From: an uncultured Actinomycetes bacterium
GTDB taxonomy: Bacteria; Actinomycetota; UBA4738; HRBIN12
NCBI GenBank assembly: GCA_963716935.1
Contig: CAVQUN010000005.1
Location: forward strand, 384,864-448,863
DNA length: 64,000 nt
Direction: 5' to 3'
The notes under the pieces were generated by a model. The model had not been told where the DNA came from. It worked only from the letters and a program-made list of their open reading frames with translations, and ran no database searches. Made by a program: the position numbers and the translations under genes. Position 1 is the stretch's first letter. Every line of letters begins with the position of its first letter. This document shows, in pieces, positions 22,828 to 51,264 of this stretch.

Positions 22828-22830
22828 CGC

Positions 22831-27163: not shown

Positions 27164-28765
27164 GTGTCGGAACGCAAGGTCGGGTCCGTGACCTACCAGG
27201 AGGTGGGCCAGGACTACTTCGACAAGCGCGGCCTTCGGCGCCACGCAGGTGTCTGGTCGCTGTGGGCCCTCGGCGTCGGGGCGGTCATCTCCGGCGAGTA
27301 CTACGGCTGGAACTTCGGCCTGGGAACCGGAGGATTCGGCGGCCTGCTGATCGCCGGTGCGCTGATGGCGATCATGTACTACGGCCTCGTCTACTCGATC
27401 GCCGAGATGTCCCCCGCGCTCCCGCACACGGGCGGTGCGTACTCGTTCGCGAGATCGGCCATGGGGCCGTGGGGCGGGTTCCTCACCGGCCTCGCGGAGA
27501 ACATGGAGTACGTGATCACGCCGGCGGTCGTCGTCGGCGCGATCGGGCTGCTCATGCAGGAGATCGTCGCGGGCCTGTTCAACGTCACCGGCGACCCGTG
27601 GTGGAACAGCCTCCCGATGTGGTGGGCGGTCTTCTACATCATCTTCGTCGGGATCAACATCCTCGGGATCGAGGCCACGATGCGATTCACGGTGGTCATC
27701 ACGGTCCTGTCCATCGCGGTCCTCGTGTTCTTCTTCCTTGCGGCGATCTTCTCGGGGAAGCTCGACTTCTCGCTGTGGACGAACATCCCCAAGGGCGGCG
27801 GCGAACCGATCCCCGGCGGAGGCGGACCGATGCTCCCGTTCGGGCTGAGCGGGATCTTCAAGTCCCTTCCCTTCGCGATCTGGTTCTTCCTCGCGATCGA
27901 GGAGGTGCCGCTCGCGGCGGAGGAGTCGATGGACCCGCGGCGCGACGTGCCCAAGGGATCCGTGTGGGCGATGCACACGCTGCTGATCGCGGCCATCCTC
28001 ACGCTGGTCTTCAACACGGCCCTGCCGGGAGGAGCGTTCCTCTACGGCCAGTCGGGGTTCCCGCTGCTGGATGGGCTGTTCGCGATCTTCGGCAAGGACA
28101 GCGCCACCGAGTTGCTCGGGCTCCTGTTCCTCATCGGCCTCGTGGCGAGCTTCTTCACGATCATCTACGCGTACGGCCGGAACACGTACTCACTGTCGCG
28201 CGCCGGCTACTTCCCGAAGTTCCTGTCGAAGACACACGGTCAGCGCAAGACACCCCATGTCGCCCTGATCGCCGGGGCGCTCGTCGGGTACGCGGTCTCG
28301 CTGCTCGTGTACATCCTGCAGCGTGAGGAGCTCGGCACGCAGATCGTCGCCGCGCTGCTGAACATGGCGGTATTCGCTGCGGTCATCTCGTACATCTTCC
28401 AGATGACGTCGTTCGTCCTGCTCCGCAGGAAGATGCCGAACATCGCGCGGCCCTACCGCAGCAAGTGGGGCGTTCCGGGTGCGGTCATCGCGGGACTGCT
28501 CGCGGCCGTGTCCCTCGTGGCGATCTTCCTGAACGAGGCCTACCGCCCCGGCGTGTATGGCGTGGCGATCTACTACGTCCTCGGGGTCCTGTACTTCGCG
28601 ATCGCCGGGAGGAACCGGCTCGTCCTCTCACCGGAAGAGGAGTTCGCGCTCACGCAGGGCGAGAAGGGCGTGCCGCAGGAGAGCTACGTGACGAGCGCGG
28701 CGGAGCAGGAGGCGATCCTGCGCGGCGAGAGTTCGAGCACCGGAACCCAGGCCCCGTCTGGGTAG
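27164..28765 (+). CDS. APC-superfamily amino acid/ethanolamine permease (EutP/Eat-like)
   Basis: 12-TM APC fold. HTGGAYSF-like motif (LPHTGGAYSFARSAMGPWGGF) typical of ethanolamine permeases. GTG 27164 behind RBS GGGAGG. Confidence 0.8.
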   Translation: MSERKVGSVTYQEVGQDYFDKRGLRRHAGVWSLWALGVGAVISGEYYGWNFGLGTGGFGGLLIAGALMAIMYYGLVYSIAEMSPALPHTGGAYSFARSAMGPWGGFLTGLAENMEYVITPAVVVGAIGLLMQEIVAGLFNVTGDPWWNSLPMWWAVFYIIFVGINILGIEATMRFTVVITVLSIAVLVFFFLAAIFSGKLDFSLWTNIPKGGGEPIPGGGGPMLPFGLSGIFKSLPFAIWFFLAIEEVPLAAEESMDPRRDVPKGSVWAMHTLLIAAILTLVFNTALPGGAFLYGQSGFPLLDGLFAIFGKDSATELLGLLFLIGLVASFFTIIYAYGRNTYSLSRAGYFPKFLSKTHGQRKTPHVALIAGALVGYAVSLLVYILQREELGTQIVAALLNMAVFAAVISYIFQMTSFVLLRRKMPNIARPYRSKWGVPGAVIAGLLAAVSLVAIFLNEAYRPGVYGVAIYYVLGVLYFAIAGRNRLVLSPEEEFALTQGEKGVPQESYVTSAAEQEAILRGESSSTGTQAPSG

Positions 28766-28791
28766 CGGGTCGCTCGATCCAACGCGCGGAC

Positions 28792-28824
28792 GGCGGGCCC
28801 CTCGGGGCCCGCCGTCTTCGTCTC
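28792..28824 (+). terminator. Putative intrinsic terminator after the permease gene
   Basis: GGCGGGCCC-CTCG-GGGCCCGCC hairpin followed by GTCTTCGTCTCC. The T-tract is weak for a high-GC genome. Confidence 0.4.
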
Positions 28825-28829
28825 CGCAC

Positions 28830-28864
28830 GTTTGACAGCCCGGACCGTCGGTGCACGTGATACG
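28830..28864 (+). promoter_or_regulatory. Conserved promoter-like motif GTTTGACA-N21-GATACG (copy 2) upstream of GS-like gene 1
   Basis: Same hexamers and same 21-nt spacing as copy 1. Followed by CGAACGAAC. Confidence 0.4.
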
Positions 28865-28890
28865 CGAACGAACTCACGAGGGGGAGCGAG

Positions 28891-30279
28891 ATGACGCACC
28901 CGCAGGGCATGCTCGACGCGAAGCACCTCGAGGAGCTCGCCGGCAAGGGCGAGATCGACACGGTTCTGTGCATGTTCACCGACCTGCAGGGCCGCTTCAT
29001 GGGCAAGCGCGTCGTCCCGCACTTCTTCCTCGAGGAGATCCTGGGCGAGGAGGGGCTGCACGCGTGCCTGTACCTGCTCGCCATCGACATGGAGATGGAG
29101 CCGCTGCCCGGATACCGCTACGCGAGCTGGGAGACCGGGTACGGCGACTTCCGCATGGTCCCGGACATGAGCACGCTTCGCTGGTGCCCCTGGCTCGAGA
29201 AGACCGTGATGGTGCTCTGCGACATCTTCGAGGAGGAGGAGAAGGACCAGGAGGTGGAGGTCGCGCCCCGGACGATCCTCAAGCACCAGATCGCGCGCGC
29301 GGCCGCGGCCGGCTACACGATCAAGACCGGCTCGGAGCTCGAGTTCTACCTGTTCCAGGATTCGTACCGCGAGGCCGCCGAGCGCGGCTATCGGGACCTG
29401 CGCCCCAGCTCCCCGTACATCATGGACTACCACATGCTCCAGACCACGCGGGACGAGTGGATCGTCCGGCAGATCCGCAACGCGATGCTGGGTGCGGGCA
29501 TCCCCGTCGAGTTCAGCAAGGGCGAGTTCGGCAAGGGCCAGCAGGAGATCAACATCACCTACTCGGACGCGCTCTCGAACGCCGACCACCACGCCCTGTA
29601 CAAGCACGGGGTCAAGGAGATCGCCGAGCTGAACGGCGTGGCGATCACCTTCATGGCGAAGTGGACGATGGCCGAGGCCGGCTCCAGCTGCCACCTGCAC
29701 TCGAGCGTGTGGAACGCCGAGGGGACCAAGAGCCTGATGTGGTCCGACGAGGGCGAGCACCACATGAGCGACACCTACCGCTGGTACCTCGGCGGCCTCA
29801 TGGCGTGCGCGCGCGAGATGGCCTGGATGTACGCGCCGTTCGTGAACTCCTACAAGCGCTACCAGCTGGGCTCGTGGGCGCCGACGGCGATCGTGTGGAG
29901 CCGGGACAACCGCACCTGCGGATTCCGCACCGTGGGCGAGCACACGGGCGCGCGGGTCGAGTGCCGGATCCCCGGCGCCGACGCGAACCCCTACCTGGCG
30001 TTCGCGGCGACGATCGCGGCCGGCCTGTGGGGGATCGAGAACAAGGTCGAGCCGCCCGAGATGTTCGTCGGCAACGCCTACGAGGCTAAGGACGTGGCCC
30101 GCGTCCCCTACTCGCTCCACGAGGCGATCGAGGCGTTCAAGGACTCGAAGGTGGCCCGGGAGGCGTTCGGGGACTTCGTCTTCGAGCACCTGCTGAACAC
30201 GGCGGTCCAGGAGCAGGTCATCTTCGACAACACGACCGTGACCGACTGGGAGCTCGCCCGGTACTTCGAGCGCGGCTGA
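28891..30279 (+). CDS. Glutamine synthetase-family protein 1 (gamma-glutamyl-amine synthetase, GlnA4/PuuA-like)
   Basis: GS catalytic-domain motifs (GSELEFYLF, KGEFGKGQQEIN, SWAPT...WSRDNRT, ADANPYLAFAA). Lacks the GlnA type I adenylylation loop. Confidence 0.88.
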   Translation: MTHPQGMLDAKHLEELAGKGEIDTVLCMFTDLQGRFMGKRVVPHFFLEEILGEEGLHACLYLLAIDMEMEPLPGYRYASWETGYGDFRMVPDMSTLRWCPWLEKTVMVLCDIFEEEEKDQEVEVAPRTILKHQIARAAAAGYTIKTGSELEFYLFQDSYREAAERGYRDLRPSSPYIMDYHMLQTTRDEWIVRQIRNAMLGAGIPVEFSKGEFGKGQQEINITYSDALSNADHHALYKHGVKEIAELNGVAITFMAKWTMAEAGSSCHLHSSVWNAEGTKSLMWSDEGEHHMSDTYRWYLGGLMACAREMAWMYAPFVNSYKRYQLGSWAPTAIVWSRDNRTCGFRTVGEHTGARVECRIPGADANPYLAFAATIAAGLWGIENKVEPPEMFVGNAYEAKDVARVPYSLHEAIEAFKDSKVAREAFGDFVFEHLLNTAVQEQVIFDNTTVTDWELARYFERG

Positions 30280-30304
30280 CCATAGGCCTCGAGAGACTCG
30301 TGAG

Positions 30305-31036
30305 ATGCGGCCCGTCCTGCTGATCGGGCACGATCAGAACGAGACCTTCGGGTTGGCCCCGGCCGGCCTCGGGGCTCGAGGGCTGGAGGTCTTTGAGCAC
30401 CGTGCCCCGTCGGGCGGCACGCTCCCTTCGATCGACGCGGTCTCCGGAGTGATCGTCTTCGGGGGATCGATGAACGTGGACATGGTCGACCGTTACCCCT
30501 TCCTCCTGGAGGAGCGAGGCTTCGTGCGCCGGGCCGTCGACGCGGGCGTTCCCCTTCTGGGGATCTGCCTCGGATCGCAGATGCTCGCGAGGGCGATGGG
30601 TCATGAGGTGTATGCGGCCGACGTGCGGGAGTTGGCGTTCAACGTCCTCCACGTGACGCCCGAGGCGGCCGCCGACCCGCTCATGTCCGTGTTCCGCGAC
30701 GGCGACATGGTCTTCCACTGGCACGAGGACACCTTCGAGCTCCCGGAGGGCGCGACGATCCTCGGCACCGGGGACGAAGTCCATCTCCAGGCGTTTCGGA
30801 TCGGCGACCACGCCTGGGGCATGCAGTTCCATTTCGAGATCGACCGGGCCGAGCTGGAGCTCTGGCTCCGGGCGGCTGGCGAGGACGTCGTGCAAGCGTG
30901 GGGGAAGACCACTGCCCAGGTCCTGGATGAGGCCGATCGTTTCTTGGCGACCCAGGAGGCGCGCGCCACCCGGCTCTTCGGCAGGTTCGCAGACGTGGTC
31001 CTGGCGGCGGGGAGAAATCGATCGGCCACCGGCTAG
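30305..31036 (+). CDS. Class I glutamine amidotransferase-like protein 1 (gamma-glutamyl-amide hydrolase candidate)
   Basis: GATase1 fold with nucleophile-elbow GICLGSQ and His/Glu in WHEDTFELP. Confidence 0.8.
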   Translation: MRPVLLIGHDQNETFGLAPAGLGARGLEVFEHRAPSGGTLPSIDAVSGVIVFGGSMNVDMVDRYPFLLEERGFVRRAVDAGVPLLGICLGSQMLARAMGHEVYAADVRELAFNVLHVTPEAAADPLMSVFRDGDMVFHWHEDTFELPEGATILGTGDEVHLQAFRIGDHAWGMQFHFEIDRAELELWLRAAGEDVVQAWGKTTAQVLDEADRFLATQEARATRLFGRFADVVLAAGRNRSATG

Positions 31037-33959: not shown

Positions 33960-33974
33960 CGGCGTTCCATCCCC

Positions 33975-36715: not shown

Positions 36716-36926
36716 CTGCGCTCCCCTCCTCGGGCTCGCCCCGATCGACCTGCGGTGCTGGGTATAGCGTGAGGGGCCGAGACCCGCAACGCGAGGCGAC
36801 GCGGCCGGCGACGGCCGCTCCCGAGCGACCGGGCGGGACTCCGGGCCACGGGGCGGGTGGGGTACGCTCACGCCGCCGGCGCGACGTTCGGCGGACGACC
36901 GACCGGAGCACGCGAAGGAGGTCCGG

Positions 36927-38318
36927 GTGGCCCAGGCGTTCGTTGATGGCAGCCGAAGCCACGTGCTGCCGCTCGAGCTCGCTCACGCCTACCCGGTGAT
37001 CGTCCGCGGCGAGGGCGTCTGGGTCGAGGACGCGGCCGGCACCCGGTACATCGACGCGATGAGCGGCGGGTCGATGGCCGCCACGCTCGGCCACGGCCGC
37101 CGCGACATCGTGGCGGCAGCCCGGGCGCAGGCCGAGACGCTGCCGTTCCTCCACAACGAGCGGCTCACGAACCCCGCGCAGGAGCGCCTGGCCCGAGAGC
37201 TCGTCGAGGTCGCCCCGCAGGGGTTCACCCGGGTGCGGTTCACGACCGCGGGCGCCGATGCCAACGAGCTGGCGGTGCAGCTTGCCCGCAGCTACCACGT
37301 CGAGCGCGGCGAGCCGGGGCGCTGGCAGGTGATCTCGCCCGCGCAGGCCTACCACGGTCCGACCATGGAGACGCTCGCGCTGACGGGACGCCCAGGGCTC
37401 CAGCGCCCTTTCGAGCCGTACCTCGCCCGGCACGAGCACATCCCGCCGAGCACCTGGCGGTTCGATCCGACCGGCGAGGCGGCGCTGCAGGCGCTCGACG
37501 AAGCGTTGGAACGGGTGGGGCCCGAGACGGTCTCGGCGTACTTCTGCGAGCCGATCAGCGCGGCCGCGCTTCCCGCATACACCCCGCCTCGCGGCTTCTG
37601 GGAGGGGCTGGCCGAGCGACGCGAGCGCCACGGGTTCCTCGTGTGCTTCGACGAGATCGTCACCGGCGTTGGCCGCACCGGTCGCTGGTTCGCGGGCGAG
37701 GCCACGGCCTGCGCGCCGGACCTGATCGCGACGGCGAAGGGTCTCGGGGCCGGCTACGCGGCGATCGGCGCCGTCCTGTGCCGGGACCGCGTGTTCGACG
37801 CGATCGCGGAGGGCTCGGGCCGGTTCACGCTCGGGCACACGTGGGACGGCGCCCCGCTCTCGTGCGCCGTCGGGCTCGCGGTCATGGAGGCGATGCGGTC
37901 CGAGCGCCTGGTCGAGCGGGTCCGCGATCGGGGGCCGATCCTTCGCGAGGAGCTGGAGCGCTCGCTCAAGGCCGTTCCCATGGTTCACGAGGTCCGCGGC
38001 GAGGGCTACCTGCTCGGCGTCGAGTACGTGGATCCGCGCGACGGCCGGTCGTTCCTGCCGCCGGAGCTTCGCGTGGCCGGACGGATCGACCGCGCGGCGT
38101 TCGAGGGCGGCCTCATCACGCTGTCGACCCAGCCGACGCGAGACGGCTACGCGGGCGACCAGACCCTGTTCGCGCCCGCGTTCACCGCGGGCGACGAGGA
38201 TCTCGAGGAGATGGTCGCCCGGTTCGCCGACGCAGTGACCCGCGTCGCGGAGCAGGTCGAGTCCGAGCTCGCCGCCTCGTCCGCGAGCTCCCCCTCACCG
38301 ATCGGAGGTGCGCCGTGA
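36927..38318 (+). CDS. Class III (omega) aminotransferase 1
   Basis: PLP fold type I, AT-III family (FDEIVTGVGRTGRWFA, ATAKGLGAGY with the PLP-lysine). GTG start behind RBS GAAGGAGG. Confidence 0.88.
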   Translation: MAQAFVDGSRSHVLPLELAHAYPVIVRGEGVWVEDAAGTRYIDAMSGGSMAATLGHGRRDIVAAARAQAETLPFLHNERLTNPAQERLARELVEVAPQGFTRVRFTTAGADANELAVQLARSYHVERGEPGRWQVISPAQAYHGPTMETLALTGRPGLQRPFEPYLARHEHIPPSTWRFDPTGEAALQALDEALERVGPETVSAYFCEPISAAALPAYTPPRGFWEGLAERRERHGFLVCFDEIVTGVGRTGRWFAGEATACAPDLIATAKGLGAGYAAIGAVLCRDRVFDAIAEGSGRFTLGHTWDGAPLSCAVGLAVMEAMRSERLVERVRDRGPILREELERSLKAVPMVHEVRGEGYLLGVEYVDPRDGRSFLPPELRVAGRIDRAAFEGGLITLSTQPTRDGYAGDQTLFAPAFTAGDEDLEEMVARFADAVTRVAEQVESELAASSASSPSPIGGAP

Positions 38319-39037
38319 GCCCAACTCCCGCCGGCGCCGCCCCGTTGCGCGCGCTCGTCCTGCAGCACGAGGACCCCACGCCCCCCGGGCTCGTCACCGA
38401 ATGGCTCGCGTCCCACGAGGCCCTCGTCGAGACCTTCCGCATCGACCTGGAGGATCGCGAGCTCGATCCGACCGACTACGACCTCATCGTGTCGCTCGGT
38501 TCCGAGTTCGCCGCGTTCGACGACACGAAGCCGTTCGTGGGGCGCGAGGCCCGGCTCCTGCGTCGAGCCGTCGACGCCGACGTCCCCGTCCTCGGCCTCT
38601 GCTTCGGCGGCCAGATGCTCGCGCGGGTGCTCGGCGCCGACGTGTTCCGCTCCGAGGAGTCCGAGATCGGGTGGCTCCCCGTCCGCAGCACCGATCCCGA
38701 GCTCGTCCCCGAGGGCCCGTGGTTCCAGTGGCACTTCGACTCGTTCACCGCGCCGCCCGGGGCGAGCGTGATCGCCGAGTCCGACGTGGGCCCGCAGGCC
38801 TTCGTCGCGGGTCGCAGCCTCGGGCTGCAGTTCCACCCCGAGGTGACCCCGCAGATCATGGACGACTGGGTGCGCACGTACCGGCATGAGCTCGACGCCG
38901 ACGGGGTCGATCCCGACGCGCTGCTGGAGGAGACGCATCGGCGCGCCGACGAGAGCCGCCGGACGTCGTGGCAGCTCCTCGAGCGGTTCCACGACCGGAT
39001 CGCCGGCCTCGGCGCGCGGGAAGCGACGACGGCGTAG
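38314..39037 (+). CDS. Class I glutamine amidotransferase-like protein 2
   Basis: GTG 38314 in a GTGA overlap with the aminotransferase stop. GATase1 motifs GLCFGGQ and HFDSF...FHPE. The upstream 223 aa of the track ORF are artefact. Confidence 0.8.
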
Positions 39038-39051
39038 GCGGCGGAGGAACC

Positions 39052-40414
39052 GTGCAGGCGACGATCCGATCCGAGCAGACGAGCGTGTTCCCCCGCTTCG
39101 CCGACCTCGCCTACCCGAACGTCGAGCGCGGCGACGGCGTCTGGCTCACGACGACCGACGGACGCCGGATCCTCGACGCCTGCTCCGGCGGCGCGATGGT
39201 GACGTGCCTCGGGTACGGGGTCCCCGAGGTGGTGGCGGCCGCGGCCGAGCAGGCCGAACGCATCGCGTACTTCTACAACCACCACTTCACGAGCGAGCCG
39301 CAGGAGCGATTCGCCGAGCGCCTGCTTGCGATCGCCGCCCCGGAGATGGCGCGAGCGCGATTCGTCTCGGGCGGCTCGGAGGCCAACGAGACCGCGCTGC
39401 AGCTGGCGCGCCTGTACCACGTCGAGCGGGGCGAGCCCGAGCGCTGGCGCGTGATCTCGCCGGCGCAGTCCTACCACGGCTCCACGATGGGGACGCTCGC
39501 GCTGAACGGGAGGCCCGCCCTGCAGGAGCCGTTCACTCCCTACCTCGCCGACCACCTGCACCTGCCGCCGTCGACGTCGCGCTTCGACCCGACCGGCGAG
39601 GCCGCGTTGCAGGAGCTGGATCGCCTCCTCGAACGGGCGGGCCCGGGGACGATCGCCGCCTTCCTCGCCGAGCCCGTGAGCGCGGCGGCGCTGCCCGGGT
39701 ACGCGCCGCCGGAGCGGTTCTGGCGAGGCCTCGCCGAGCGTCGCGAGCGGCACGGGTTCCTCGTCTGCCTCGACGAGGTGGTGACCGGCATGGGCCGCGT
39801 CGGGAGCTGGCTCGCGGCGCACCAGCTGCCGATCGAGCCCGACATCGTCGCGGTCGGCAAGGCGCTCGGCGCCGGGTACGCGCCGCTCGGCGCGGTGCTG
39901 TGCCGCCGGCACGTGTACGACGCCCTCGACCGGGGCTCGCGCGAGTTCGACCTCGGCCATACGTGGGACGGCGCCCCGCTGTCCACCGCGGTCGGGCTCG
40001 CGGTGCTCGACCAGCTCGAAAGCCGGGGCCTGGTCGACCGCGTGCGCGATCGCGGGCCGGCCCTGCGGCAGGAGCTCGCGTCGGCGCTCGCGGGCTTCGG
40101 CGTCGTCGGCGAGGTTCGCGGCCGCGGCTTCCTCCTCGGCGTCGAGCTCGTCGACCCGCGCGACGCGCACGTCGTTCCTGCCGGTCGAGCTCGACGCCGC
40201 GACGATCGTCGACGACCTCGCGCTCGAACACGGCCTCCTCGTCACGTCGACGCATCCCCAGGCGGACGGCTACGCGGGCGACCAGACGCTCCTCGCCCCC
40301 GCCTACACGAGCACCGACGCCGAGCTCGCCGAGATGGTCGAGCGGTTCGCCGCGACGATCGGCGAGGTCGAGCGCGTTCTCGGGCGGACGCTCTCCGGCA
40401 CGAACGCGCCATGA
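39052..40414 (+). pseudogene. Class III aminotransferase 2, apparently +1 frameshifted near 40165
   Basis: Paralogue of aminotransferase 1. Homology runs in frame 1 to ...GVELVDPRDA, then continues in frame 2 (SFLPVELDAATIVDDLALEHGLLVTSTHPQADGYAGDQTLLAPAYT...) to TGA 40412-40414. Frame 1 instead reads an Arg-rich tract into the next gene. Confidence 0.6.
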
Positions 40415-41700
40415 GCGAGCCCCTCGGCGAGTTCATCCTCCTCGGCATGCCCGACGTGAACGGCTCGCTCCGCGGCAAGGCGCTGCGACCCGAGGCGTTC
40501 GAGTCGGCGCTCCGGCACGGGACGGTGATGACGGACCTCCTGCTCGGCCTCGACCCGGTCGACACGCCGATCGCCGACTACGAGCGGTTCGGGATCCGAA
40601 CCGGCGCCGCGGACCTCGTCGTGCACCCGGATCCGGAGACGCTGCACCCGTTGCGATGGCGGCCCGGGTGGCGGGTCTGCCTCGCCACGCCGACCTGGCC
40701 CGACGGCTCGCCCTGCGAGCTCGCCTCGCGAGAGGTGCTACGCCACGTCCTCGACGGCGTCGCCGAGCTGGGGTTCGAGGTGCTCGCCGCGTTCGAGTAC
40801 GAGATCCGGATCTGGGACGCGAACGGCGATCCCCTGTCGAGCGGCATCAGCTACAGCCTCACGGAGATCGACCGCTACGCCGCGTTCGCGTCCGAGCTCG
40901 CCCCGGCGCTTCGAGAGCTCGGGATCGAGCTCTCGGCGGTCCACACCGAGGCCGGGCCGGGACTCCTCGAGCTGAACCTCACGCCCGGGCGCGGCCTTCG
41001 CGCCGCCGACGACGCCGCGTTGGTCAAGTTCGCCGCCAAGCAGCTCGCCGCGTCGATGGGGCTGCGCGCGAGCTTCCTCGCCAAGACGGTTCCGGGAGAG
41101 GAGGGATCGAGCGGCCATCTCCACGTCTCGCTGTGGAACGGCGACGCGAACGCCTTCGCCGCGTCGGACCTCACCCATCCTCTGCCGCCTGCCTTCGACG
41201 CCGCGGTGGCCGGCGTCCTCGACCACCTCCCGGCCGCGTCTTTGCTGCTGAACCCGACGATCAACTCGTACAAGCGGCTCGTCCCGGGATGGTTCGCGCC
41301 GATCAACGCAACCTGGGGGTTCGAGAACCGCTCGTGCGCCGTCCGCGTCATCCGGTCGACCCGGCCCGAGCTGTGGCGGTTCGAGTGCCGGCGCCCCGGC
41401 GCCGACGCCAACCCGTATCTCGCGCTCGCGGCGCTCGTCGCCTCGGTCGCCGACGGCCTCCGGCGCGGGGCGACGCCGCCGGCGCCCGTCGAGGGCGACG
41501 CCTACGCGCGCGACGACCTCCCGGAGCTGCCCGGCTCCCTCGAGGCGGCGCTCGGGGCCTTCGAGGCCGACGCGGTCCTGCGACGCGAGCTCGGCGAGCG
41601 GTTCGCCGAGTACTACGCCACGTCCCGGGCCTGGGAGCTCAAGGCGTGGCGCGAGACGGTCACCGACTGGGAGCGCGAGCGCTACGACCGCGCGGTGTAG
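40411..41700 (+). CDS. Glutamine synthetase-family protein 4
   Basis: ATG 40411 overlaps the frame-2 stop of the upstream aminotransferase (ATGA). GS catalytic motifs (AAFEYEIRIW, GHLHVSLWN, ADANPYLALAA). Confidence 0.85.
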   Translation: MSEPLGEFILLGMPDVNGSLRGKALRPEAFESALRHGTVMTDLLLGLDPVDTPIADYERFGIRTGAADLVVHPDPETLHPLRWRPGWRVCLATPTWPDGSPCELASREVLRHVLDGVAELGFEVLAAFEYEIRIWDANGDPLSSGISYSLTEIDRYAAFASELAPALRELGIELSAVHTEAGPGLLELNLTPGRGLRAADDAALVKFAAKQLAASMGLRASFLAKTVPGEEGSSGHLHVSLWNGDANAFAASDLTHPLPPAFDAAVAGVLDHLPAASLLLNPTINSYKRLVPGWFAPINATWGFENRSCAVRVIRSTRPELWRFECRRPGADANPYLALAALVASVADGLRRGATPPAPVEGDAYARDDLPELPGSLEAALGAFEADAVLRRELGERFAEYYATSRAWELKAWRETVTDWERERYDRAV

Positions 41701-41706: not shown

Positions 41707-43005
41707 ATGACCCCGTACCGGCCGCTCGTCGCCGTCGTCGCCTACCACCTCGCCGACGATCGGGTGCCCCGATGGCCGCATGGCGGCTACGGCGTCCCCG
41801 GTCCCTACCTCGACTGCCTCCGGCGGGCCGGCGCCCGCACCGCCATCCTGTCCCCCGGGGAAACGGGATCGCCGCAGGAGCTCCTCGATCCCTTCGACGC
41901 GCTCCTGCTCGTCGGGGGCGGCGACGTCGATCCCGAGCGGTACGCGCAGGCGCCGGGCGAGCACGTGTACGGCGTCGAGGAAGACCGCGACGCGTTCGAG
42001 ATCGACCTCCTGCGAGCCGCCGACGCGATAGGCGTGCCCACCCTGTGTATCTGCCGCGGCATGCAGGTCATGAACGTCGCGTTCGGTGGCACGCTCCTGC
42101 AGCATCTCCCGGTGGTACCGGGCCTCCTCGAGCACGGCGTGCCGGTCCAGGACATCCAGTCGCTGCACGACGTGCGGACGGACCCCGGGAGCCGCCTGCG
42201 GGCGACGGCCGGCGTCGAGACGCTGACGTGCTCGTCGCACCACCATCAGGGCGTCGATCGCGTCGGGGAGGGGTTGCGGGCCACGGGGTGGAGCGAGGAC
42301 GGGCTCGTCGAGGCGATCGAGCGCGAGCCGGGGGGCGGGGCGGACGATCGCCCGTTCGAGGCCGGATGGATGGTGGGCGTGCAGTGGCATCCGGAGGACA
42401 CGGCCGACGGCGACGCCGCACAGCAATCGCTGTTCGACGCGCTCGCGGTCCTCGGCCACGTTCGCGGCACGCGCGCCCGGCCCGGCCTTCGCGCCGGACG
42501 GAGCCGCGCCTACGAGCTGGTCGAGCCCGATCCGGCGTGGGCGGCGATGTTCGAAGAGGAGGCGGATCGGATCCGGGCCGCGCTCGGGCCGGTGGCCGTT
42601 CGCGTGGACCACGTCGGCTCGACGGCGGTTCCCGGGCTCGCGGCCAAGCCGACCATCGACATCCAGGTGTCGGTCGACGCGATGGTGCCGCGCGCCCGCT
42701 TCGTCGAGCCGCTCATCGCCCTTGGGTACGAGTTCGTCGTCGACCCCACCGACACCGAGCACCAGTACCTCCGGCGGGAGATCGACGGCGTGCGCAAGCA
42801 CCAGATTCACGTCTGCGCGGCGGGCGGCGAGTGGGAGGCTCGGCACCTGCGGTTTCGAGACCACCTTCGAGCCCATCCCGAGGACGCCGCCGCATACGAG
42901 GAGCTGAAACGGCGGCTCGTGCGCGAGCACCCGAACGACGTCATGACGTACGTCGACGGCAAGACGCCGTTCATCCGCCGGATCGAGGCGCTCGCCGACC
43001 CGTAG
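41707..43005 (+). CDS. Fusion protein: peptidase C26/class I GATase (PuuD-like gamma-glutamyl hydrolase) + GrpB-family domain
   Basis: N-terminal half has the C26 triad context (LCICRGMQ nucleophile, HHQG, WHPE). C-terminal half has GrpB motifs (VDHVGSTAVPGLAAKPTIDIQV, HQIHVC, FRDHLRAHPE). Confidence 0.8.
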   Translation: MTPYRPLVAVVAYHLADDRVPRWPHGGYGVPGPYLDCLRRAGARTAILSPGETGSPQELLDPFDALLLVGGGDVDPERYAQAPGEHVYGVEEDRDAFEIDLLRAADAIGVPTLCICRGMQVMNVAFGGTLLQHLPVVPGLLEHGVPVQDIQSLHDVRTDPGSRLRATAGVETLTCSSHHHQGVDRVGEGLRATGWSEDGLVEAIEREPGGGADDRPFEAGWMVGVQWHPEDTADGDAAQQSLFDALAVLGHVRGTRARPGLRAGRSRAYELVEPDPAWAAMFEEEADRIRAALGPVAVRVDHVGSTAVPGLAAKPTIDIQVSVDAMVPRARFVEPLIALGYEFVVDPTDTEHQYLRREIDGVRKHQIHVCAAGGEWEARHLRFRDHLRAHPEDAAAYEELKRRLVREHPNDVMTYVDGKTPFIRRIEALADP

Positions 43006-43097: not shown

Positions 43098-44201
43098 ATG
43101 GGCGAGTTGAGAATCGTTCGGGCCGAAGGGGATCCCAACGCGCGCGGGCAGCAGATCGGGCGCGAGCTCCGCGACCTCCTCAACGAGTCCGTCGACTTCT
43201 ACCACCGCTACCTGTCTCGTCGCGGGGTCAGCTCGCAAGGGCTCCAGGACGTCCTCACGCCGTATCTCGTCGCCGCCGAGGGCCAGTTCCCCGCGTTCAT
43301 GGCGACGCTGAAGGGGATGTCCGTCGGCGCGATGGTCCCGGTCCTGGAGCTGTTCGCGATCAACGCGTTCGAGGAGCTGGAGCCGATGCTCGAGACGCCC
43401 GAGGGGGCGCTGCGATTCCTTCAGCGGAAGGAGGGCTACCTCGAGCCGCCGTCGCCGCCGATCGAACGCTGCTCCAGCTTCACGGTGACCGGACCCGACG
43501 CGACGATCCTCGCGCACAACGAGCACTGGCTGGCCGGCGACCTCGGCAACATCGCGCTGGTCGTGGACATCCCCGACGACCGCCCCGTTCGCGTGGCCTC
43601 GCCGACCGTCGTCTGCTGCCTGCCGGCCGTGGGGATGAACAGTCACGGCGCCGCGCAGGGCATCGGGTCGCTGACGGCCTCCGACGACGGCGTCGGCGTG
43701 CCGCGCGTGCTGGTGTCCCGGCACTCATTGGAGGCGATGGACCGGGGGGACGCGGTCGCGCGAGCGGGGCTGCCGTCTCGTGCGGGCGGGTACGGGCACA
43801 CCTTCGCGTTCCCCGGCGGCGACGCCTTCGTCGTGGAGACCACCGCGACCGCGCTCGCGGTCGTCGACGAGCCGGCGATCCACACGAACCACTACCTGGA
43901 CCCGGGCCTCGCGCAGCTCGGGCCCGAGCCCTCGGCGGGCAGCCGGGCTCGGTACGCCCGGATCGAGCAGCTGCTCGCCGAGCGATCCCCGCGAACGGTG
44001 CCCGAGGTGATGGATATCCTGCGCGACCACGGCTCTTCTCCTCAGGCGATCTGCCTGCACCCTGACCCCGCCGAGGGCGACGAGGCCTCGGCCGTGCTGT
44101 TCTCGATGGTCGCGGAGCTGGAGGAGGGCAGGATGTGGGTCGCCGCCGGCAACCCGTGCGAGAACGAGTACGAGGAGATCGACCTCGCCGGCGTGCTCTG
44201 A
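43098..44201 (+). CDS. Peptidase C45-family Ntn hydrolase / acyl-CoA:6-APA acyltransferase-like protein
   Basis: ATG 43098. Putative autoproteolytic nucleophile (ERCSSF) and a NEHW block resembling the C45 NEDW region. It is the C-terminal portion of a 1771-aa artefactual ORF. Confidence 0.65.
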   Translation: MGELRIVRAEGDPNARGQQIGRELRDLLNESVDFYHRYLSRRGVSSQGLQDVLTPYLVAAEGQFPAFMATLKGMSVGAMVPVLELFAINAFEELEPMLETPEGALRFLQRKEGYLEPPSPPIERCSSFTVTGPDATILAHNEHWLAGDLGNIALVVDIPDDRPVRVASPTVVCCLPAVGMNSHGAAQGIGSLTASDDGVGVPRVLVSRHSLEAMDRGDAVARAGLPSRAGGYGHTFAFPGGDAFVVETTATALAVVDEPAIHTNHYLDPGLAQLGPEPSAGSRARYARIEQLLAERSPRTVPEVMDILRDHGSSPQAICLHPDPAEGDEASAVLFSMVAELEEGRMWVAAGNPCENEYEEIDLAGVL

Positions 44202-44427
44202 GCTTCGCTGACCTGCGGTCAGTTTCGGAGCAATCGAACCGCTGCTGCCTGCCGAATCGGTGGCTACCGAAGCGCTCGGGGTCCGTGCTATACAGACCGC
44301 CGATGCCGGATCCCGCGCGGCTCGTCGTCCCGGACGGCAATCGCGCGCAACTCCGGCGGTCGCGCGCGTCCGTAGGCCTCGAGGGGGGTCCGCGGCGAAC
44401 CGGGGACGGCCGGAAGGAGGAGGCGCG

Positions 44428-46311
44428 ATGAGGGGCTCCAGGGGCAGGTTCGGGATCGCGGTGGCGCTCGTCACGATCCTCGCGACGGGGGCGTTCGCGA
44501 GCGTGGCCCTCGCGCAGGACACCGGGTCGACCGGGTCGACCGGGAGCGACGGCGGTGCGCCCGTCCGGTTCACCTGGGGATCGTCCAGCGAGCCGAGCTC
44601 GCTGAACCCGATGGCGGGCTATCTCGGGACGGACTTCTACTTCTGGACGGCGAGCTACCACCTGCTGGTCAACTTCGACCAGAACCTCGGCGCACGCCCC
44701 GGGCTCGCGACCGACATCGAGACGAGCCCCGACAACATGCAGTTCACGTACACGATCCGCGACGACGTCACCTGGTCCGACGGCGAACCCCTCACCGCCG
44801 AGGACGTCGCGTTCACCCTGAACCTGTACAAGTTCAACCACGCGTACCTGCCGCAGGGCTACCTGACGCTGATCGACGGCGAGGTGACGGCGCCCGACGC
44901 CACCCACGTCACGTTCCGCACCAAGGAGCCGACCGGCCTATACAGCGGACAGTTCCCCTACATGTACGACTACATCCTGCCCAAGCACGTGTTCGAGGGC
45001 ATCGACAAGCCGAAGCAGTACGAGAACGTGCCGCAGGTGGCGAGCGGCCCATTCATGATCACCGACTACCAGATCGGCGAGTTCGTGCAGCTCGAGAAGA
45101 ACCCGTACTGGACCGGCCCCGAGCCCGCGGTCGACGAGCTCATCTATCGCATCTACAAGAACGAGGACGCGCTCGCACAGGCGCTCAAGCAGGGTGAGAT
45201 CGACTTCGCCTACTTCTCGTCGGCAAACATCTACAACTCGCTCATCGACCAGCCGAACATCGGCACGATGGCCGGCAGCGTGCCGGCCTTCGACGAGATC
45301 GGGATGAACACGGGATCCGCATATCAGGATCCCTCCGGCGACTTCGTCCCGCACGGCGATGGCCATCCCGCACTCACCGACGTCACCGTCCGGCGCGCCA
45401 TCCGGATGGCGATCAACAGCGAGGACCTCACGCAGAAGGTGCTCCTTGGGTACGGCATCCCGGGGGACACCATCATTCCGCCCGTCTCCGTCCCCGGGGC
45501 GAGATGGACGCCGACGGGCGACGACGTCATCCCCTGGGACATCCCCGGGGCGAACCAGCTCCTCGACGACGCCGGCTACGTCGATACCGACGGAGACGGC
45601 GTCCGGGAGATGCCGCCCGGCTCGCTCGAGCCCGGCCGCCCGCTCGAGTTCCGGTACTACGTGCGGACGAGCGAACAGACCTCCATCGACGCCTCCCCGT
45701 TCGTCTCCGAGTGGCTGAGCCAGATCGGGATCAAGGCCAACGTCGAGGCGGTGACCTCGAACTCCCTCGGCGACATCATCAACGCGGGGACGTACGACCT
45801 GTTCTCGTGGGGCTGGCTGCCCGACCCCGATCCCTCGGGCCAGCTCAACGTGTTCACGTGCGTCGAGCGCCCGCCCGACGGCAGCACCTACGGCAACAAC
45901 GACCCCTATTACTGCAACCCGCAGTACGACGATCTGTACCAACAGCAACTATCTGAGCTCGACCCCGACAAGCGGTTAGAGATCGCCCACGAGATGCAGA
46001 AGATCTTCTACGAGGACTCCGCGTATGCGGTCATGTGGTACGAGCCGCTCTTCCAGGCCTACCGAACCGATCGCTTCACGGGGTACGCCCCACAGCCCGA
46101 GCCGAAGGGCGACCTGCTCCAGGGCTACGGCGGACCGAGCGACATCTGGACGACGCTCAAGCCCGTGAGCGCCTCCGAGGGAGGGACCACGAGCTCCGAG
46201 GAATCGCGCGGGATCCCGGCGGCTGTGTGGCTCGGCGCGGTGGCCCTGGTCGCCATCATCGTCGTGGTCATGGTCGTGCGGGGTCGCCGCCCCGACGAGG
46301 ACGAGGCATAG
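44428..46311 (+). CDS. ABC transporter substrate-binding protein, family 5 (peptide/opine/nickel type), with Sec signal and C-terminal TM anchor
   Basis: SBP_bac_5 architecture. ATG 44428 behind RBS GGAAGGAGGAGG. N-terminal signal peptide, Ser/Thr/Gly linker, and a C-terminal hydrophobic helix followed by RGRRPDEDEA. Confidence 0.85.
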   Translation: MRGSRGRFGIAVALVTILATGAFASVALAQDTGSTGSTGSDGGAPVRFTWGSSSEPSSLNPMAGYLGTDFYFWTASYHLLVNFDQNLGARPGLATDIETSPDNMQFTYTIRDDVTWSDGEPLTAEDVAFTLNLYKFNHAYLPQGYLTLIDGEVTAPDATHVTFRTKEPTGLYSGQFPYMYDYILPKHVFEGIDKPKQYENVPQVASGPFMITDYQIGEFVQLEKNPYWTGPEPAVDELIYRIYKNEDALAQALKQGEIDFAYFSSANIYNSLIDQPNIGTMAGSVPAFDEIGMNTGSAYQDPSGDFVPHGDGHPALTDVTVRRAIRMAINSEDLTQKVLLGYGIPGDTIIPPVSVPGARWTPTGDDVIPWDIPGANQLLDDAGYVDTDGDGVREMPPGSLEPGRPLEFRYYVRTSEQTSIDASPFVSEWLSQIGIKANVEAVTSNSLGDIINAGTYDLFSWGWLPDPDPSGQLNVFTCVERPPDGSTYGNNDPYYCNPQYDDLYQQQLSELDPDKRLEIAHEMQKIFYEDSAYAVMWYEPLFQAYRTDRFTGYAPQPEPKGDLLQGYGGPSDIWTTLKPVSASEGGTTSSEESRGIPAAVWLGAVALVAIIVVVMVVRGRRPDEDEA

Positions 46312-46342
46312 GAGCGTTCGAAGGAGGCCCGCCCGAACCGTC

Positions 46343-47326
46343 ATGCGCGGCTACCTGGTCGGCAAGGTCCTGCAGGCCTTCCTCACGCTGCTGTTCGTCG
46401 TGGCCTTCAACTTCTTCCTGTTCCGGATCGTTCCCGGCGACCCCGCGGCGCTGCTCCTGCGCGGCACGTCCGCCTACAACCCCGAGAGCGTCGAGGCCCT
46501 CCGGCACGACCTCGGCCTGGACAAGCCGCTCCCGCAGCAGTTCGTCATCTACATCAAGGACACGTTCACGCTGAACTTCGGGCAGTCGTTCTTCCTGCGG
46601 GGGGCGCCGGTCTACGACGTCATCCGCGACAAGGTCTGGCCCACGGTGCTGCTGGTCGGCACCTCGACGATCGCGTCCGCCGTGATCGGCCTCATCATCG
46701 GCATCTACGGCGGCTGGAAACGCGGGAGCTCGTTTGACGTCGGGTCCCTCGGGTTCACGCTGTTCGTCTACGCCATGCCCGAGTTCTGGTTCGGGATCCT
46801 CGTCCTCATGGCGTTCGCCGGGGGGGTGGGGCCCTTCCCTGCCTTGTTCCCCACCGGGGGGTACGAGACCCCCGCATCCGGGCTCACGGGGATGGCACAC
46901 GTCGTCGACGTCCTGAACCACATGGTCCTGCCGTTCTTCGTCCTCACCGTGGCTTATCTGGGCGAGTACTCGCTCATCATGCGGAACTCGCTCATCGACG
47001 TGATGAACGACGACTTCGTCCAAACGGCGCGAGCCAAGGGCGTGCGCGAGAAGAAGGTGCTGTGGGACCACGTCGTTCCCAACGCGGCGCTCCCCACCCT
47101 CACCCTCACGCTGCTGTCCCTCGGGTTCGTCTTCTCCGGAGCCATCACCATCGAGTACGTCTTCTCGTGGCCCGGTCTCGGGTGGCTCACCGTGCAGGCC
47201 ATCGACGCCAACGACTACGCGTTGCTCCAGGGGCTCTTCTTCCTGTTCTCGGCGGCGGTGATCGTCGCGAACCTGCTCGCGGACGTCCTGTACTCGTACC
47301 TCGATCCCCGCGTGAGGGCGGCCTAG
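46343..47326 (+). CDS. ABC transporter permease (DppB/OppB-like)
   Basis: BPD_transp_1 family, with an N-terminal conserved region typical of DppB. Confidence 0.88.
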   Translation: MRGYLVGKVLQAFLTLLFVVAFNFFLFRIVPGDPAALLLRGTSAYNPESVEALRHDLGLDKPLPQQFVIYIKDTFTLNFGQSFFLRGAPVYDVIRDKVWPTVLLVGTSTIASAVIGLIIGIYGGWKRGSSFDVGSLGFTLFVYAMPEFWFGILVLMAFAGGVGPFPALFPTGGYETPASGLTGMAHVVDVLNHMVLPFFVLTVAYLGEYSLIMRNSLIDVMNDDFVQTARAKGVREKKVLWDHVVPNAALPTLTLTLLSLGFVFSGAITIEYVFSWPGLGWLTVQAIDANDYALLQGLFFLFSAAVIVANLLADVLYSYLDPRVRAA

Positions 47327-47327
47327 C

Positions 47328-48305
47328 ATGCGCCCGTCCGAGCCGATGGGGCACGTCCTCGACGCGCCGCCGGCCGGCAGCGAGCTCGAGCCCGGCCCGC
47401 CCGCAGAACCGCCCCGATCCGGGCGCTCGATCGTCTGGTCGCGGCGCCGGCGCTCGGCCAAGCGGATCTGGGCGGTCTACCGCAAGAGCAAGATGGGGAT
47501 GTGGGGGCTGTACATCCTCGCCTTCTTCATCCTCGTGGCGATCTTCGCGCCGCTCATCGCGCCCCGCGAGGCGCTGAACGCGACCTGCCCGTGCAACGGC
47601 GTCCCGTTCAGCCCGCCGAGCCCGGGGTTCCCGTTCGGCACCGACAACTTCGGGCGCTCGGTCTTCGCGCTGACCGTCTGGGGAACGCGGATCTCGCTCA
47701 CGGTCGGGCTGCTCGCCACGGCGATCTCCATGGTGATCGGCTCGCTGATCGGCATCGTGGCCGGCTACTACGGCCGGTGGCCCGAGTCGGTGTTGATGCG
47801 CCTCACGGACTGGTTCCTCGTGATCCCGTTCCTGCCGCTCGCGATCGTGCTCGCGTCCATCCTCGGGCAATCGCTGGGGGTGATCATCCTCGTCATCGGG
47901 ATCACCTCGTGGCCGAGCACCGCCCGCATCATCCGGGCACAGGTGCTGTCCGTGAAGACGCGAGCGTACGTCGAGCGCGGTCAGGCGCTCGGCGCCAGCG
48001 GCTGGCATACAGTCTCCCGCCACATCCTGCCGAACGTCGGTCCGCTGATCCTTGCGAACACGATCCTGACGATCGCGATCGCGATCCTGTCGGAAACCAC
48101 CCTGGCGTTCCTCGGCCTCGGTGACCCGCTCACGATCTCCTGGGGCCGCATCCTCGAGTTCGCCTTCGGCGCCGGCGCGGCCGGAGCCGGGCAGTGGTGG
48201 TGGCTCGTCCCGCCCGGGCTCGCGATCGTCTTCGTCGTGCTGGCGTTCACGATGTGCGGGTTCGCCCTCGACGAGATCGTCAACCCGAAGCTGCGCCGGC
48301 GATGA
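47328..48305 (+). CDS. ABC transporter permease (DppC/OppC-like)
   Basis: BPD_transp_1 family with the EAA-like loop. The next gene starts in an ATGA overlap. Confidence 0.85.
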   Translation: MRPSEPMGHVLDAPPAGSELEPGPPAEPPRSGRSIVWSRRRRSAKRIWAVYRKSKMGMWGLYILAFFILVAIFAPLIAPREALNATCPCNGVPFSPPSPGFPFGTDNFGRSVFALTVWGTRISLTVGLLATAISMVIGSLIGIVAGYYGRWPESVLMRLTDWFLVIPFLPLAIVLASILGQSLGVIILVIGITSWPSTARIIRAQVLSVKTRAYVERGQALGASGWHTVSRHILPNVGPLILANTILTIAIAILSETTLAFLGLGDPLTISWGRILEFAFGAGAAGAGQWWWLVPPGLAIVFVVLAFTMCGFALDEIVNPKLRRR

Positions 48306-49287
48306 GCATCCTGTCGGTCCGTGACCTCGCGATCACCTATTCCACGCAGGGCGGGCCCGTGCCCGCCGTTCGCGGCGTGACCTTCGACATCGAGAAGGGC
48401 GAGGTGCTGGGCCTCGCCGGCGAGTCCGGGTGCGGCAAGTCGACGATCGTGAACGCCATCCTGCGCCTGCTGCCACCCGAGACGAAGGTCGAGGGTGAGG
48501 TGGTGCTGGGCGGCGAGGACGTGCTGTCGATGAAGCCGGGACGCCTGCGCGCCGTGCGATGGACCGAGGCGTCGGTCGTGTTCCAGGGCGCGATGCATGC
48601 GCTGAATCCCGTGCAGCGGGTCGGCGATCAGATCGCCGAGGCGATCGTGATCCACGGGCAGGCCGGCGAGCGCGAGGCGTTGGTGCGGGTCGGCGGTCTG
48701 CTCGAGCAGGTCGGCCTGCCGCCGCGACGGCTTCGCGACTACCCGCACGAGCTCTCGGGCGGCCAGAAGCAGCGCGTGATGATCGCGATGGCCCTCGCGT
48801 GCAGCCCGAGTCTCGTGATCGCCGACGAGCCCACGACCGCCCTCGACGTGATGGTCCAGGCGCAGGTGCTGAAGCTCCTCAAGAGCCTCCAGCGCGAGCT
48901 CGGCCTCGCGATGCTGTTCATCACGCACGACCTGTCCGTGCTCGTCGAGGTCTCGGACCGGCTCGCGATCATGTACGCCGGGAAGATCATCGAGGAGGGG
49001 ACCGCGCGCGAGGTCTTCGACAGCCCGAAGCACCCGTACTCGGAGGCGCTCGCGGCGGCATTCCCGGCGATCGGCGACGAGCGGTTCCGCCGCAACCCAT
49101 CGGGGCTGGGCGGCGATCCTCCCGACCCGGCGGCGATCCCCTCCGGCTGCTCGTTCCATCCGCGGTGCCCGGTCGCGTTCGAGCCCTGCTCGACGACGGT
49201 GCCGGAGCTCTACGCCGCGGGGGAGGGGCGTCGCGCCGCGTGCCTGCTCGTCGAAGGCGCGCTCGTCGACGCTCCGAGGACGGCCGA

Positions 49288-49291
<4 letters not shown>
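48302..49291 (+). CDS. ABC transporter ATP-binding protein (DppD/OppD-like)
   Basis: Walker A GESGCGKST, LSGGQKQR, Walker B, and an oligopeptide-transporter C-terminal domain with Cys cluster. Confidence 0.9.
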
Positions 49292-50361
<1,070 letters not shown>

Positions 50362-51048: not shown

Positions 51049-51264
51049 GCCGGTAATCGTGCTGCATTCGGGCGGGTCGCGCCAGTCCGGGGTGCGCGGG
51101 AGCGGAACAGCGTCGCGAGCCTGCCGTGAGGCCGAGAAAGAGTGACAAAACCGGTCGCCCGATTTGACCGCGGGGTCGCCGCGATGGTGGAATGCGCGTG
51201 GCGCCGCTGGAACCCTCGGGTTCCGGCGGCGCCGCTCATTTCGACCCCTCGAGGAGCCCCGTTC

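Follow-up and report, generated by a model that had tools for sequence, protein, structure and literature searches.

What does a GrpB domain do at the end of a gamma-glutamyl-amide hydrolase, and does its position there disclose what GrpB does elsewhere? The question is raised by one gene in a stretch of 64,000 nucleotides (the window; contig CAVQUN010000005.1, positions 384,864 to 448,863, assembly GCA_963716935.1) from an uncultured Actinomycetes bacterium, in which a C26 peptidase domain of the PuuD/SpuA type is joined in one reading frame to a GrpB (UPF0157) domain. GrpB/UPF0157 is a widespread bacterial domain with thousands of members and a crystal structure available since 2006. The literature searched assigns it no function, and no characterised GrpB enzyme was found there, only folding work on CoaE and passing mentions. 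A first-pass annotation, made from the sequence of the window, had proposed that the fusion places GrpB in the same gamma-glutamyl-amide turnover chemistry as the hydrolase. On balance, and with some reserve, we lean towards another reading, namely an active PuuD/SpuA-type hydrolase that would end a gamma-glutamylation-type route and that carries a functional but dispensable GrpB accessory domain.

One uninterrupted gene encodes both domains

Residue conservation was read from an alignment of 45 homologues and from one of 69 species-level genomic copies, which gave the same pattern. The features of the fusion gene, in window coordinates, are:

41707..43005, + strand: whole fusion gene, 432 amino acids (aa), ATG start, TAG stop (open reading frame (ORF) list and sequence)
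41722..42396, + strand: Peptidase_C26 domain with the class-I glutamine amidotransferase (GATase) fold, PuuD/SpuA type, aa 6-230 (Pfam PF07722; PDB sequence matches; Foldseek)
42052..42054, + strand: TGC codon of Cys116, the predicted nucleophile, in a CRGMQ motif (sequence; invariant in 69/69 full-length orthologues)
42388..42396, + strand: His228-Pro-Glu230 (WHPE), the predicted catalytic His and Glu (invariant in 69/69 orthologues)
42397..42513, + strand: conserved helix and Arg/Gly-rich linker, aa 231-269, motif ...LRGSRA.PG..GR.R.Y (alignment; dN/dS; model confidence)
42514..42987, + strand: GrpB/UPF0157 domain, aa 270-427, nucleotidyltransferase-like fold (Pfam PF04229)
42610..42666, + strand: GrpB signature H302-V-G-S-T...K314-P-x-x-D318-I-Q320, comprising the hG[GS] loop and the first metal-site strand, with Gln replacing the second carboxylate (alignment)
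42808..42861, + strand: H368-V-C370 strand and E377-x-R379-H380-x-x-F383-R384-D385 helix motif (alignment)

The gene is a single uninterrupted frame of 432 codons, and its N-terminus (MTPYRPLVAV) agrees with the starts of its homologues in the alignment. Long spurious ORFs are frequent in high-G+C genomes, and the coding signal was therefore checked in this window of ~72% G+C. The G+C content at third codon positions (GC3) remained at 0.85-0.97 in the fusion frame from start to stop, including the junction at 42400-42520, where no rival frame takes over. A marginal near-tie with another frame at ~42790-42850, spanning one or two windows of the frame plot inside the GrpB half, does not suggest a frameshift.

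An error of sequencing or assembly that deleted a stop codon could in principle have joined two adjacent genes, as the source is a metagenome-assembled contig, the neighbouring aminotransferase gene contains an apparent frameshift, and the fusion gene itself is frameshifted in several related loci from metagenome-assembled genomes (MAGs). The same in-frame junction and conserved linker, however, were found in at least 120 independent clusters, the junction also recurs in 70 clean full-length genomic copies, and the GC3 signal is continuous. Because the single-ORF architecture recurs across clusters and species genomes, the fusion is not an assembly artefact of this contig, and an artefactual origin, rejected on GC3 continuity and the recurrence of the junction, deserves practically no credence. 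The fusion is confirmed as a real gene. Neither an internal stop nor a frameshift separates its halves, and the coordinates, domain calls and approximate domain lengths of the first-pass annotation (240 aa of hydrolase, 170 aa of GrpB) were correct.

A C26 hydrolase with an intact predicted triad

The N-terminal half matched PF07722 along the entire profile (aa 6-230, profile positions 1-219 of 219; E 1.3e-48, 166 bits vs a cut-off of 20.5), and PF00117, the class-I GATase fold, also matched it (E 4e-9). Its PDB sequence matches were 3fij, 7d4r and 6vtv, and Foldseek comparison of the model with 7d53, 7d50, 3fij and 6vtv gave E values of 1e-19 to 1e-21 and target-normalised template modelling (TM) scores of 0.84-0.90. 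For Pseudomonas aeruginosa SpuA (7D4R/7D50/7D53) and Escherichia coli PuuD (6VTV), the shared C26 fold corresponded to target-normalised TM scores of 0.84-0.88 (E ~1e-20), accompanied by the same Cys-His-Glu triad and WHPE motif. SpuA is a gamma-glutamyl-polyamine hydrolase and PuuD a gamma-glutamyl-GABA (gamma-aminobutyrate) hydrolase, both of family C26. The predicted Cys116-His228-Glu230 triad is intact in the fusion protein, and in a phmmer alignment H228 pairs with H221 of SpuA, the position altered by mutation in 7D50 and 7D53, the structures that trap the thioester.

Unlike these two enzymes, to which it is just 28-32% identical, the fusion protein has an extra 170-aa GrpB domain. Its best NCBIfam matches were PuuD and the GrpB portion of dephospho-CoA kinase, neither of them anywhere near its equivalog cut-off (68 bits vs 266 for the PuuD equivalog NF008471), and because of this distance we do not regard it as a PuuD orthologue. 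The earlier description as PuuD-like thus holds for the C26 family, the fold and the triad, but does not extend to equivalence with PuuD.

A canonical-looking GrpB domain with one metal carboxylate of three

The C-terminal half matched PF04229 at about seven times the GrpB threshold (aa 270-427, profile positions 3-157 of 159; E 2.4e-50, 171 bits vs a cut-off of 25.5). Its GrpB motifs and nucleotidyltransferase-like fold, both of which had been noted from the sequence, were borne out by the Pfam match, by the signature residues and by superposition of the AlphaFold model on Enterococcus faecalis GrpB; the model superposed on SpuA/PuuD as well. The fold is that of solved GrpB and falls in the nucleotidyltransferase superfamily. 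All signature motifs were present (HxGST..AKPxxD, the hHh strand, RHxxFRDxLR, YxxLK and YxxxK), as they are in E. faecalis GrpB (EF_0920, 2NRK) and in ~40 standalone or tandem GrpB domains. Seventeen positions were invariant in 69/69 copies, namely H302, G304, S305, T306, K314, D318, H368, E377, H380, F383, R384 and D385, together with R388, Y397, K401, D411 and Y415. The motifs at H368-C370 and E377-D385 were (near-)invariant in the clade and kept in standalone GrpB proteins. Position 320, which varies across the family, was Q in 64/69 copies and S in 5/69.

Whereas 2NRK is a free-standing protein of 173 aa, the domain here forms the C-terminal half of a hydrolase. It also differs from the GrpB of CoaE-UPF0157 fusions (Mycobacterium tuberculosis Rv1631; 6N39 from M. 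paratuberculosis), in which the N-terminal partner is a P-loop kinase and the two-domain arrangement could not be superposed on the model (TM 0.33). The CoaE-fused mycobacterial domain reads FALLFVD where the hydrolase fusion reads RHLRFRD, and has thereby lost the R/H/R of the RH..FRD motif, which is kept here. Because the signature motifs are retained, unlike in the CoaE-fused domain, the GrpB half looks like a canonical GrpB with a conserved pocket rather than a degenerate one.

The nucleotidyltransferase hG[GS] loop is present and invariant (H302-V-G304-S305). Only D318 occupies a canonical metal carboxylate position, the other two being Q320 and H368, as assigned from motif order and predicted strands rather than residue-level superposition; the three-carboxylate pattern of canonical Pol-beta-type enzymes ([DE]h[DE]h and a third carboxylate on a later strand) is therefore absent. 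Structural neighbours of the GrpB half include NF90/NF45 and the TUT4 LIM, which are inactive nucleotidyltransferase-like dimerisation modules.

Both halves are under purifying selection, as judged from dN/dS ratios of 0.26 for C26 and 0.35 for GrpB (pairwise Nei-Gojobori estimates, NG86, from 69 clean genomic copies, with dS near 1). The 39-residue segment between them had a ratio of 0.27, as low as that of the hydrolase, and in the full-length AlphaFold2 model, built from the 45-sequence alignment, its per-residue confidence (predicted local distance difference test, pLDDT) was ~82-95. For the whole protein the mean pLDDT was 88 and the predicted TM score (pTM) 0.89. A pTM this high for a protein of 250 + 170 residues suggests that the domains are packed in a fixed, rigid arrangement. 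Together, the intact pocket, the signs of purifying selection and the conserved linker with its predicted rigid packing indicate that within this clade GrpB may keep its native molecular function while being physically coupled to the hydrolase.

These observations bear on whether GrpB is instead a purely structural passenger, a cis module for folding, solubility or oligomerisation with no ligand-binding or catalytic role. Such a role has a precedent, since the sole experimentally tested role of a fused GrpB domain is the cis folding and solubility of M. tuberculosis CoaE (PMC2765170, PMC13629385). It would also agree with the dimerisation modules among the structural neighbours, with the repeated loss of the domain described below, and with GrpB-GrpB tandems among its nearest relatives, which suggest self-association. 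Yet the polar signature residues of standalone GrpB were kept in 69/69 species, and the fusion did not lose the R/H/R residues that disappeared from the CoaE-fused domain. A domain serving as a scaffold alone would have little reason to keep a pocket, and we consider a passenger role rather unlikely.

The fusion is confined to a single clade

In a collection of 5.8 billion proteins grouped into 90%-identity clusters, all 120 clusters listed as best matches contained both PF07722 and PF04229, essentially at full length and from 100% down to 63% identity. When one genome per GTDB species was considered, the full fusion was present at 76 of the best 80 loci. As these figures count the best matches listed, the fusion is present in no fewer than 120 clusters and no fewer than 76 species-level genomes. 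The survey that the first-pass annotation had suggested thus found the C26-GrpB architecture to be conserved in one lineage: all but one of the fusion loci were labelled as MAGs of uncultured Actinomycetota/Actinomycetes. The exception, a fusion of 63% identity (locus L057, JBLMXP010000199.1), belongs to a MAG with the label Planctomycetaceae, probably through a binning error or contamination.

A library clustered at 50% identity contained one full-length fusion representative (P0121) and fragments. Because the fusion is limited to one lineage and has a single full-length representative at this level of clustering, it forms one tight clade and has arisen once. Other matches in two stretches in the same library were considered as distant, independent C26-GrpB fusions and rejected, being C26-C26 tandems, GrpB-GrpB tandems or a GNAT-GrpB-GrpB protein; two apparent variant architectures (P0227 and P0147) were frameshift-garbled translations of the same fusion. 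The architecture is already in databases, but uncharacterised, and its members are named 'putative glutamine amidotransferase' (JGI), 'GrpB family protein' (NCBI) or 'PuuD/GrpB-like predicted nucleotidyltransferase'.

Single frameshifts split the fusion gene at five related loci (L069, L072, L075, L078 and L080), all from the MFD...bin metagenome series. The likely cause is error in assembly or basecalling, not decay into pseudogenes.

GrpB appears to have been lost four times

At four of the related loci (L068, L076, L077 and L079) the orthologous C26 protein lacks GrpB altogether. These proteins have 260-276 aa, end 15-25 residues past the LRGSRA motif, and lie in the same gene context as the fusions; tblastn searches in all frames, with E values up to 10 and within 8 kb, found no remnant of GrpB at these four loci. 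In the C26 domain their closest relatives are fusions (81-87% identity), whereas they are mutually just 68-81% identical and are nested at four separate places in the fusion clade. Parsimony on 100 bootstrap neighbour-joining trees always required at least five state changes, corresponding to one gain and four losses. On these trees, GrpB appears to have been lost four times independently while the context remained unchanged. Because there are four clean losses with unchanged neighbours, the hydrolase evidently can work in its context without GrpB.

The persistence of GrpB-less orthologues in the same operons also weighs on the idea of a true glutamine amidotransferase, in which ammonia, freed from glutamine by the GATase half, would be channelled to GrpB as a new nucleotidyltransferase-fold synthase that activates the acceptor. 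In many amidotransferases a GATase is combined with a domain that uses ATP, and the PF00117 match, the JGI label and the predicted rigid two-domain packing would all suit such an enzyme. However, the best matches of the C26 half are the gamma-glutamyl-amide hydrolases SpuA, PuuD and Lin1909, the nearest unfused relatives consist of a C26 domain alone, and the metal triad of GrpB is incomplete. Glutamine-dependent synthesis is in our view very improbable.

Standalone GrpB genes do not share the setting of the fusion

If the fusion disclosed the function of GrpB in general, close relatives that are not fused should adjoin C26 or glutamine synthetase (GS)-like genes. This prediction was tested on the 80 metagenome loci closest to a set of four standalone GrpB proteins; seven of the loci proved to be the fusion itself. 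At the remaining 73 standalone loci, many of them on contigs short enough to limit power, no C26, GS, aminotransferase, C45 or Opp neighbour was found, and no neighbour family occurred in more than three loci. Apparently recurrent neighbour 'families' were rejected as antisense ORFs over the GrpB gene itself. In the PDB sequence matches and the 50%-identity library, GrpB was also fused to CoaE, to GNAT domains and to itself.

Close relatives of the domain include GrpB-GrpB tandems (P0123, P0139 and P0141 among them), and one protein (P0187) combines a RimL-like GNAT with two GrpB domains; these sequences suggest that GrpB works as a dimer or pseudodimer. A link between GrpB and microcin-C-like peptidyl-nucleotide metabolism was considered from its S66/MccF-like and RimL-like GNAT partners; the link is one of co-occurrence only and is not proposed here.

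The strongest form of the original proposal makes GrpB a second enzyme of the gamma-glutamyl-amide pathway, for example one that nucleotidylates or modifies a substrate, an intermediate or a GS-like ligase, with the fusion as a Rosetta-stone clue to GrpB generally. It can draw on a fusion stable in at least 76 species, on signature residues that are all kept under purifying selection, on a confidently predicted inter-domain arrangement, on a fold in the nucleotidyltransferase superfamily and on a GS-like ligase gene directly upstream in the window. Against it stand the four independent losses with unchanged context, the 73 standalone loci without C26, GS or aminotransferase neighbours, the fusions of GrpB to CoaE, GNAT and itself, the replacement of carboxylates 2 and 3 by Gln and His, and the confinement of the fusion to one clade. 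We judge a second pathway enzyme to be unlikely.

The step from fusion to shared gamma-glutamyl-amide chemistry, as the first-pass annotation drew it, finds no support in the losses, in the standalone loci, in the CoaE, GNAT and self fusions, in the folding role of the CoaE-fused domain or in the single metal carboxylate of three. Of the functional hint it had seen for GrpB, a part survives: a lineage-specific functional coupling of GrpB with the hydrolase is plausible, given the signature residues, the selection and the packing. For the family as a whole the Rosetta-stone inference is weak, because standalone loci lack such neighbours, the domain is promiscuous in its fusions and its role in CoaE is one of folding; the fusion is thus a weak clue to GrpB function family-wide.

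A gene island probably devoted to gamma-glutamyl compounds

The surrounding genes lie in the following order; the two lines on paralogues repeat genes of the neighbouring blocks individually.

20201-26906: aldehyde dehydrogenase (ALDH; -), short-chain dehydrogenase/reductase (SDR; +), FGGY kinase (-), zinc-dependent alcohol dehydrogenase (Zn-ADH; -) and GntR/UTRA regulator (-), flanking the permease/GS/GATase block
27467..31036, + strand: amino-acid permease, GS-like ligase and class-I GATase-like gene (tblastn, Pfam)
28891-30279 (+), 33978-35297 (-), 35387-36982 (-) and 40411-41700 (+): GS-like paralogues, within 13 kb
30305-31036 (+) and ~38315-39037 (+): class-I GATase-like proteins of ~240 aa, PRK07053-like, with LCFGGQ and FHPE motifs
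36927..40412, + strand: class-III aminotransferase, intact class-I GATase-like gene (~38315-39037) and second aminotransferase (Pfam, NCBIfam, ORF text, frame plot, tblastn)
40411..41700, + strand: GS-like gamma-glutamyl ligase directly upstream of the fusion (Pfam Gln-synt_C, E 2e-88)
43098..44201, + strand: C45-family autoproteolytic acyltransferase/hydrolase (Pfam AAT; NCBIfam C45_proenzyme, 165 bits vs 85)
44260..50361, + strand: Opp/Dpp-type ABC transporter with SBP_bac_5, two permeases and two ATPases (Pfam)

The stop codon of the GS-like gene at 40411..41700 lies 6 nt before the fusion ATG, and its product matched the NCBIfam models of GlnA and gamma-glutamylputrescine synthetase, all under cut-off. 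The four GS-like paralogues are ~30% identical to one another where compared, and none reaches the NCBIfam cut-off for GlnA, type III GS or gamma-glutamylputrescine synthetase. Genes for a permease and an amidohydrolase also lie upstream of the fusion, and across the 20-50 kb region aminotransferases, ALDH, SDR, Zn-ADH, permeases and the Opp transporter are present. With a GS-like ligase 6 nt upstream and four GS-like genes, aminotransferases, ALDH, ADH/SDR and permeases in the island, the gamma-glutamyl-amide context invoked by the first-pass annotation is well supported by gene content.

GS-like ligases, an aminotransferase, ADH/ALDH, a C26 hydrolase and uptake genes also occur together in E. 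coli puu, P. aeruginosa spu/pau and Streptomyces coelicolor glnA2-4 (PMC9397018), and the fusion locus, with its GS-like ligase, aminotransferase and transporter, is organised much like the SpuA and PuuD operons (PMC9397018). The island is set apart from those clusters by its four GS-like paralogues, by a further pair of class-I GATase-like genes, by a C45 hydrolase and by an ABC transporter of the peptide type; this transporter is of the Opp/Dpp rather than the PotD type, and peptidase neighbours (C45 and S66) are conserved at fusion loci.

The second class-III aminotransferase gene (39055-40412, + strand) has an apparent frameshift near 40170, seen in the frame plot, translations and tblastn. 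Its last ~80 residues lie in another frame and its stop overlaps the ATG of the GS-like gene at 40411; it is either a pseudogene or a sequencing error of the MAG. A family III CoA-transferase gene (51142-52431, + strand) lies just past the Opp ATPases. An Rfam scan of the window gave no matches, and a promoter and terminator scan of 36.5-46.5 kb, which has low power in a genome of 72% GC, found no sites.

The neighbourhood varies upstream and is stable downstream

In 69 related loci the gene immediately upstream of the fusion is a GATase-like paralogue (e.g., L005:7261-7989), the most conserved upstream partner; neither of the two copies in the window adjoins the fusion. The counterpart of the block at 27467..31036 lies directly upstream of the fusion in most relatives, which lack the ~10.7-kb stretch (~31000-41700) that here separates the GATase-like gene from the fusion. 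Within the stretch are three GS-like genes, two aminotransferases, a GATase-like gene, a permease and an amidohydrolase. L002 and L003 have at least part of it, as a GS-like/aminotransferase block, and L001 ends at a contig edge there; the stretch looks like an insertion or lineage-specific expansion of the island. A GS-like gene was present within 8 kb upstream of the fusion in 31/48 related loci, and FGGY, ADH and GntR genes recurred upstream in 11-19/48. Genes for acyl-CoA dehydrogenase and an electron-transfer flavoprotein/iron-sulfur (ETF/Fe-S) oxidoreductase were observed upstream in about half of the related loci.

Downstream, the C45 gene directly follows the fusion in 40 loci, and an Opp solute-binding protein gene was present in all 64 related loci whose flank extends for 5 kb or more. 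In 21 loci (L047:8472-9554 and 20 others) the next gene after the fusion is of the S66 LD-carboxypeptidase/MccF-like type; it replaces or accompanies C45 and precedes the Opp transporter. Its presence gives a hint that the substrate is a peptide, which might contain gamma-D-Glu.

A hydrolase with a probable accessory GrpB module

The reading that we favour, a working hydrolase with a dispensable accessory GrpB domain, can be put as follows. One polypeptide would contain two folded, functional domains. The C26 half would form a gamma-glutamyl thioester on Cys116 and then release glutamate and an amine, amino acid or peptide, a substrate class that we infer. The step would be the last of a gamma-glutamylation-type catabolic route for amines or peptides, with the earlier steps provided by the neighbouring GS-like ligases, aminotransferases and dehydrogenases, and with the route fed by the permeases and the Opp-type transporter. 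GrpB would have joined the hydrolase a single time, at the root of one clade of uncultured soil Actinomycetota. We infer for it an accessory or regulatory role, as a cis module that may bind a ligand, possibly a nucleotide, and may modulate or stabilise the hydrolase on which it is predicted to pack rigidly. It would not itself catalyse gamma-glutamyl chemistry, and would be advantageous to the hydrolase without being required for its job.

Several observations weigh against this reading. The most conserved neighbours of the fusion are peptidases or amide hydrolases and a peptide transporter, not a GS-like ligase, which is directly adjacent to the fusion just in the window and in L001-L003. 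This conserved setting makes it just as plausible that the enzyme acts on a gamma-glutamyl peptide taken up from outside as on the product of a ligase. The protein is a member of the C26 family and not a PuuD equivalog. The retained canonical pocket of GrpB would fit a second pathway enzyme equally well, the single measure behind the rigid interface is the pTM, and dS, near 1 in the selection estimates, is partly saturated.

A related possibility is that the GrpB half is a working enzyme or a nucleotide-dependent switch whose target is either the gamma-glutamylated substrate that the hydrolase uses or the neighbouring, ATP-consuming GS-like ligase. It could then prevent a futile cycle of ligase and hydrolase, or nucleotidylate an intermediate. 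We regard this as quite doubtful; if it were true, this clade would open up the biochemistry of the GrpB/UPF0157 family for the first time.

Implications for GrpB and for uncultured soil Actinomycetota

Because GrpB is dispensable here, lineage-restricted as a fusion and joined to varied partners, the fusion is no ground for annotating GrpB proteins at large as gamma-glutamyl-pathway enzymes. A specialist would find little surprise in it, but it provides pairs of proteins with and without GrpB for an old orphan domain. Nature offers few leads on GrpB, and a conserved, apparently rigid fusion to an enzyme whose chemistry is known is one of them; this lead is sharpened by a defined clade of at least 76 species, by GrpB-less natural controls in identical operon context and by a list of invariant pocket residues. 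The island itself, with its four GS-like ligases, three class-I GATase-fold genes, C45/S66 hydrolases and peptide transporter, is a reasonable target for substrate discovery, and may reveal amine or gamma-glutamyl-peptide substrates of abundant uncultured soil Actinomycetota.

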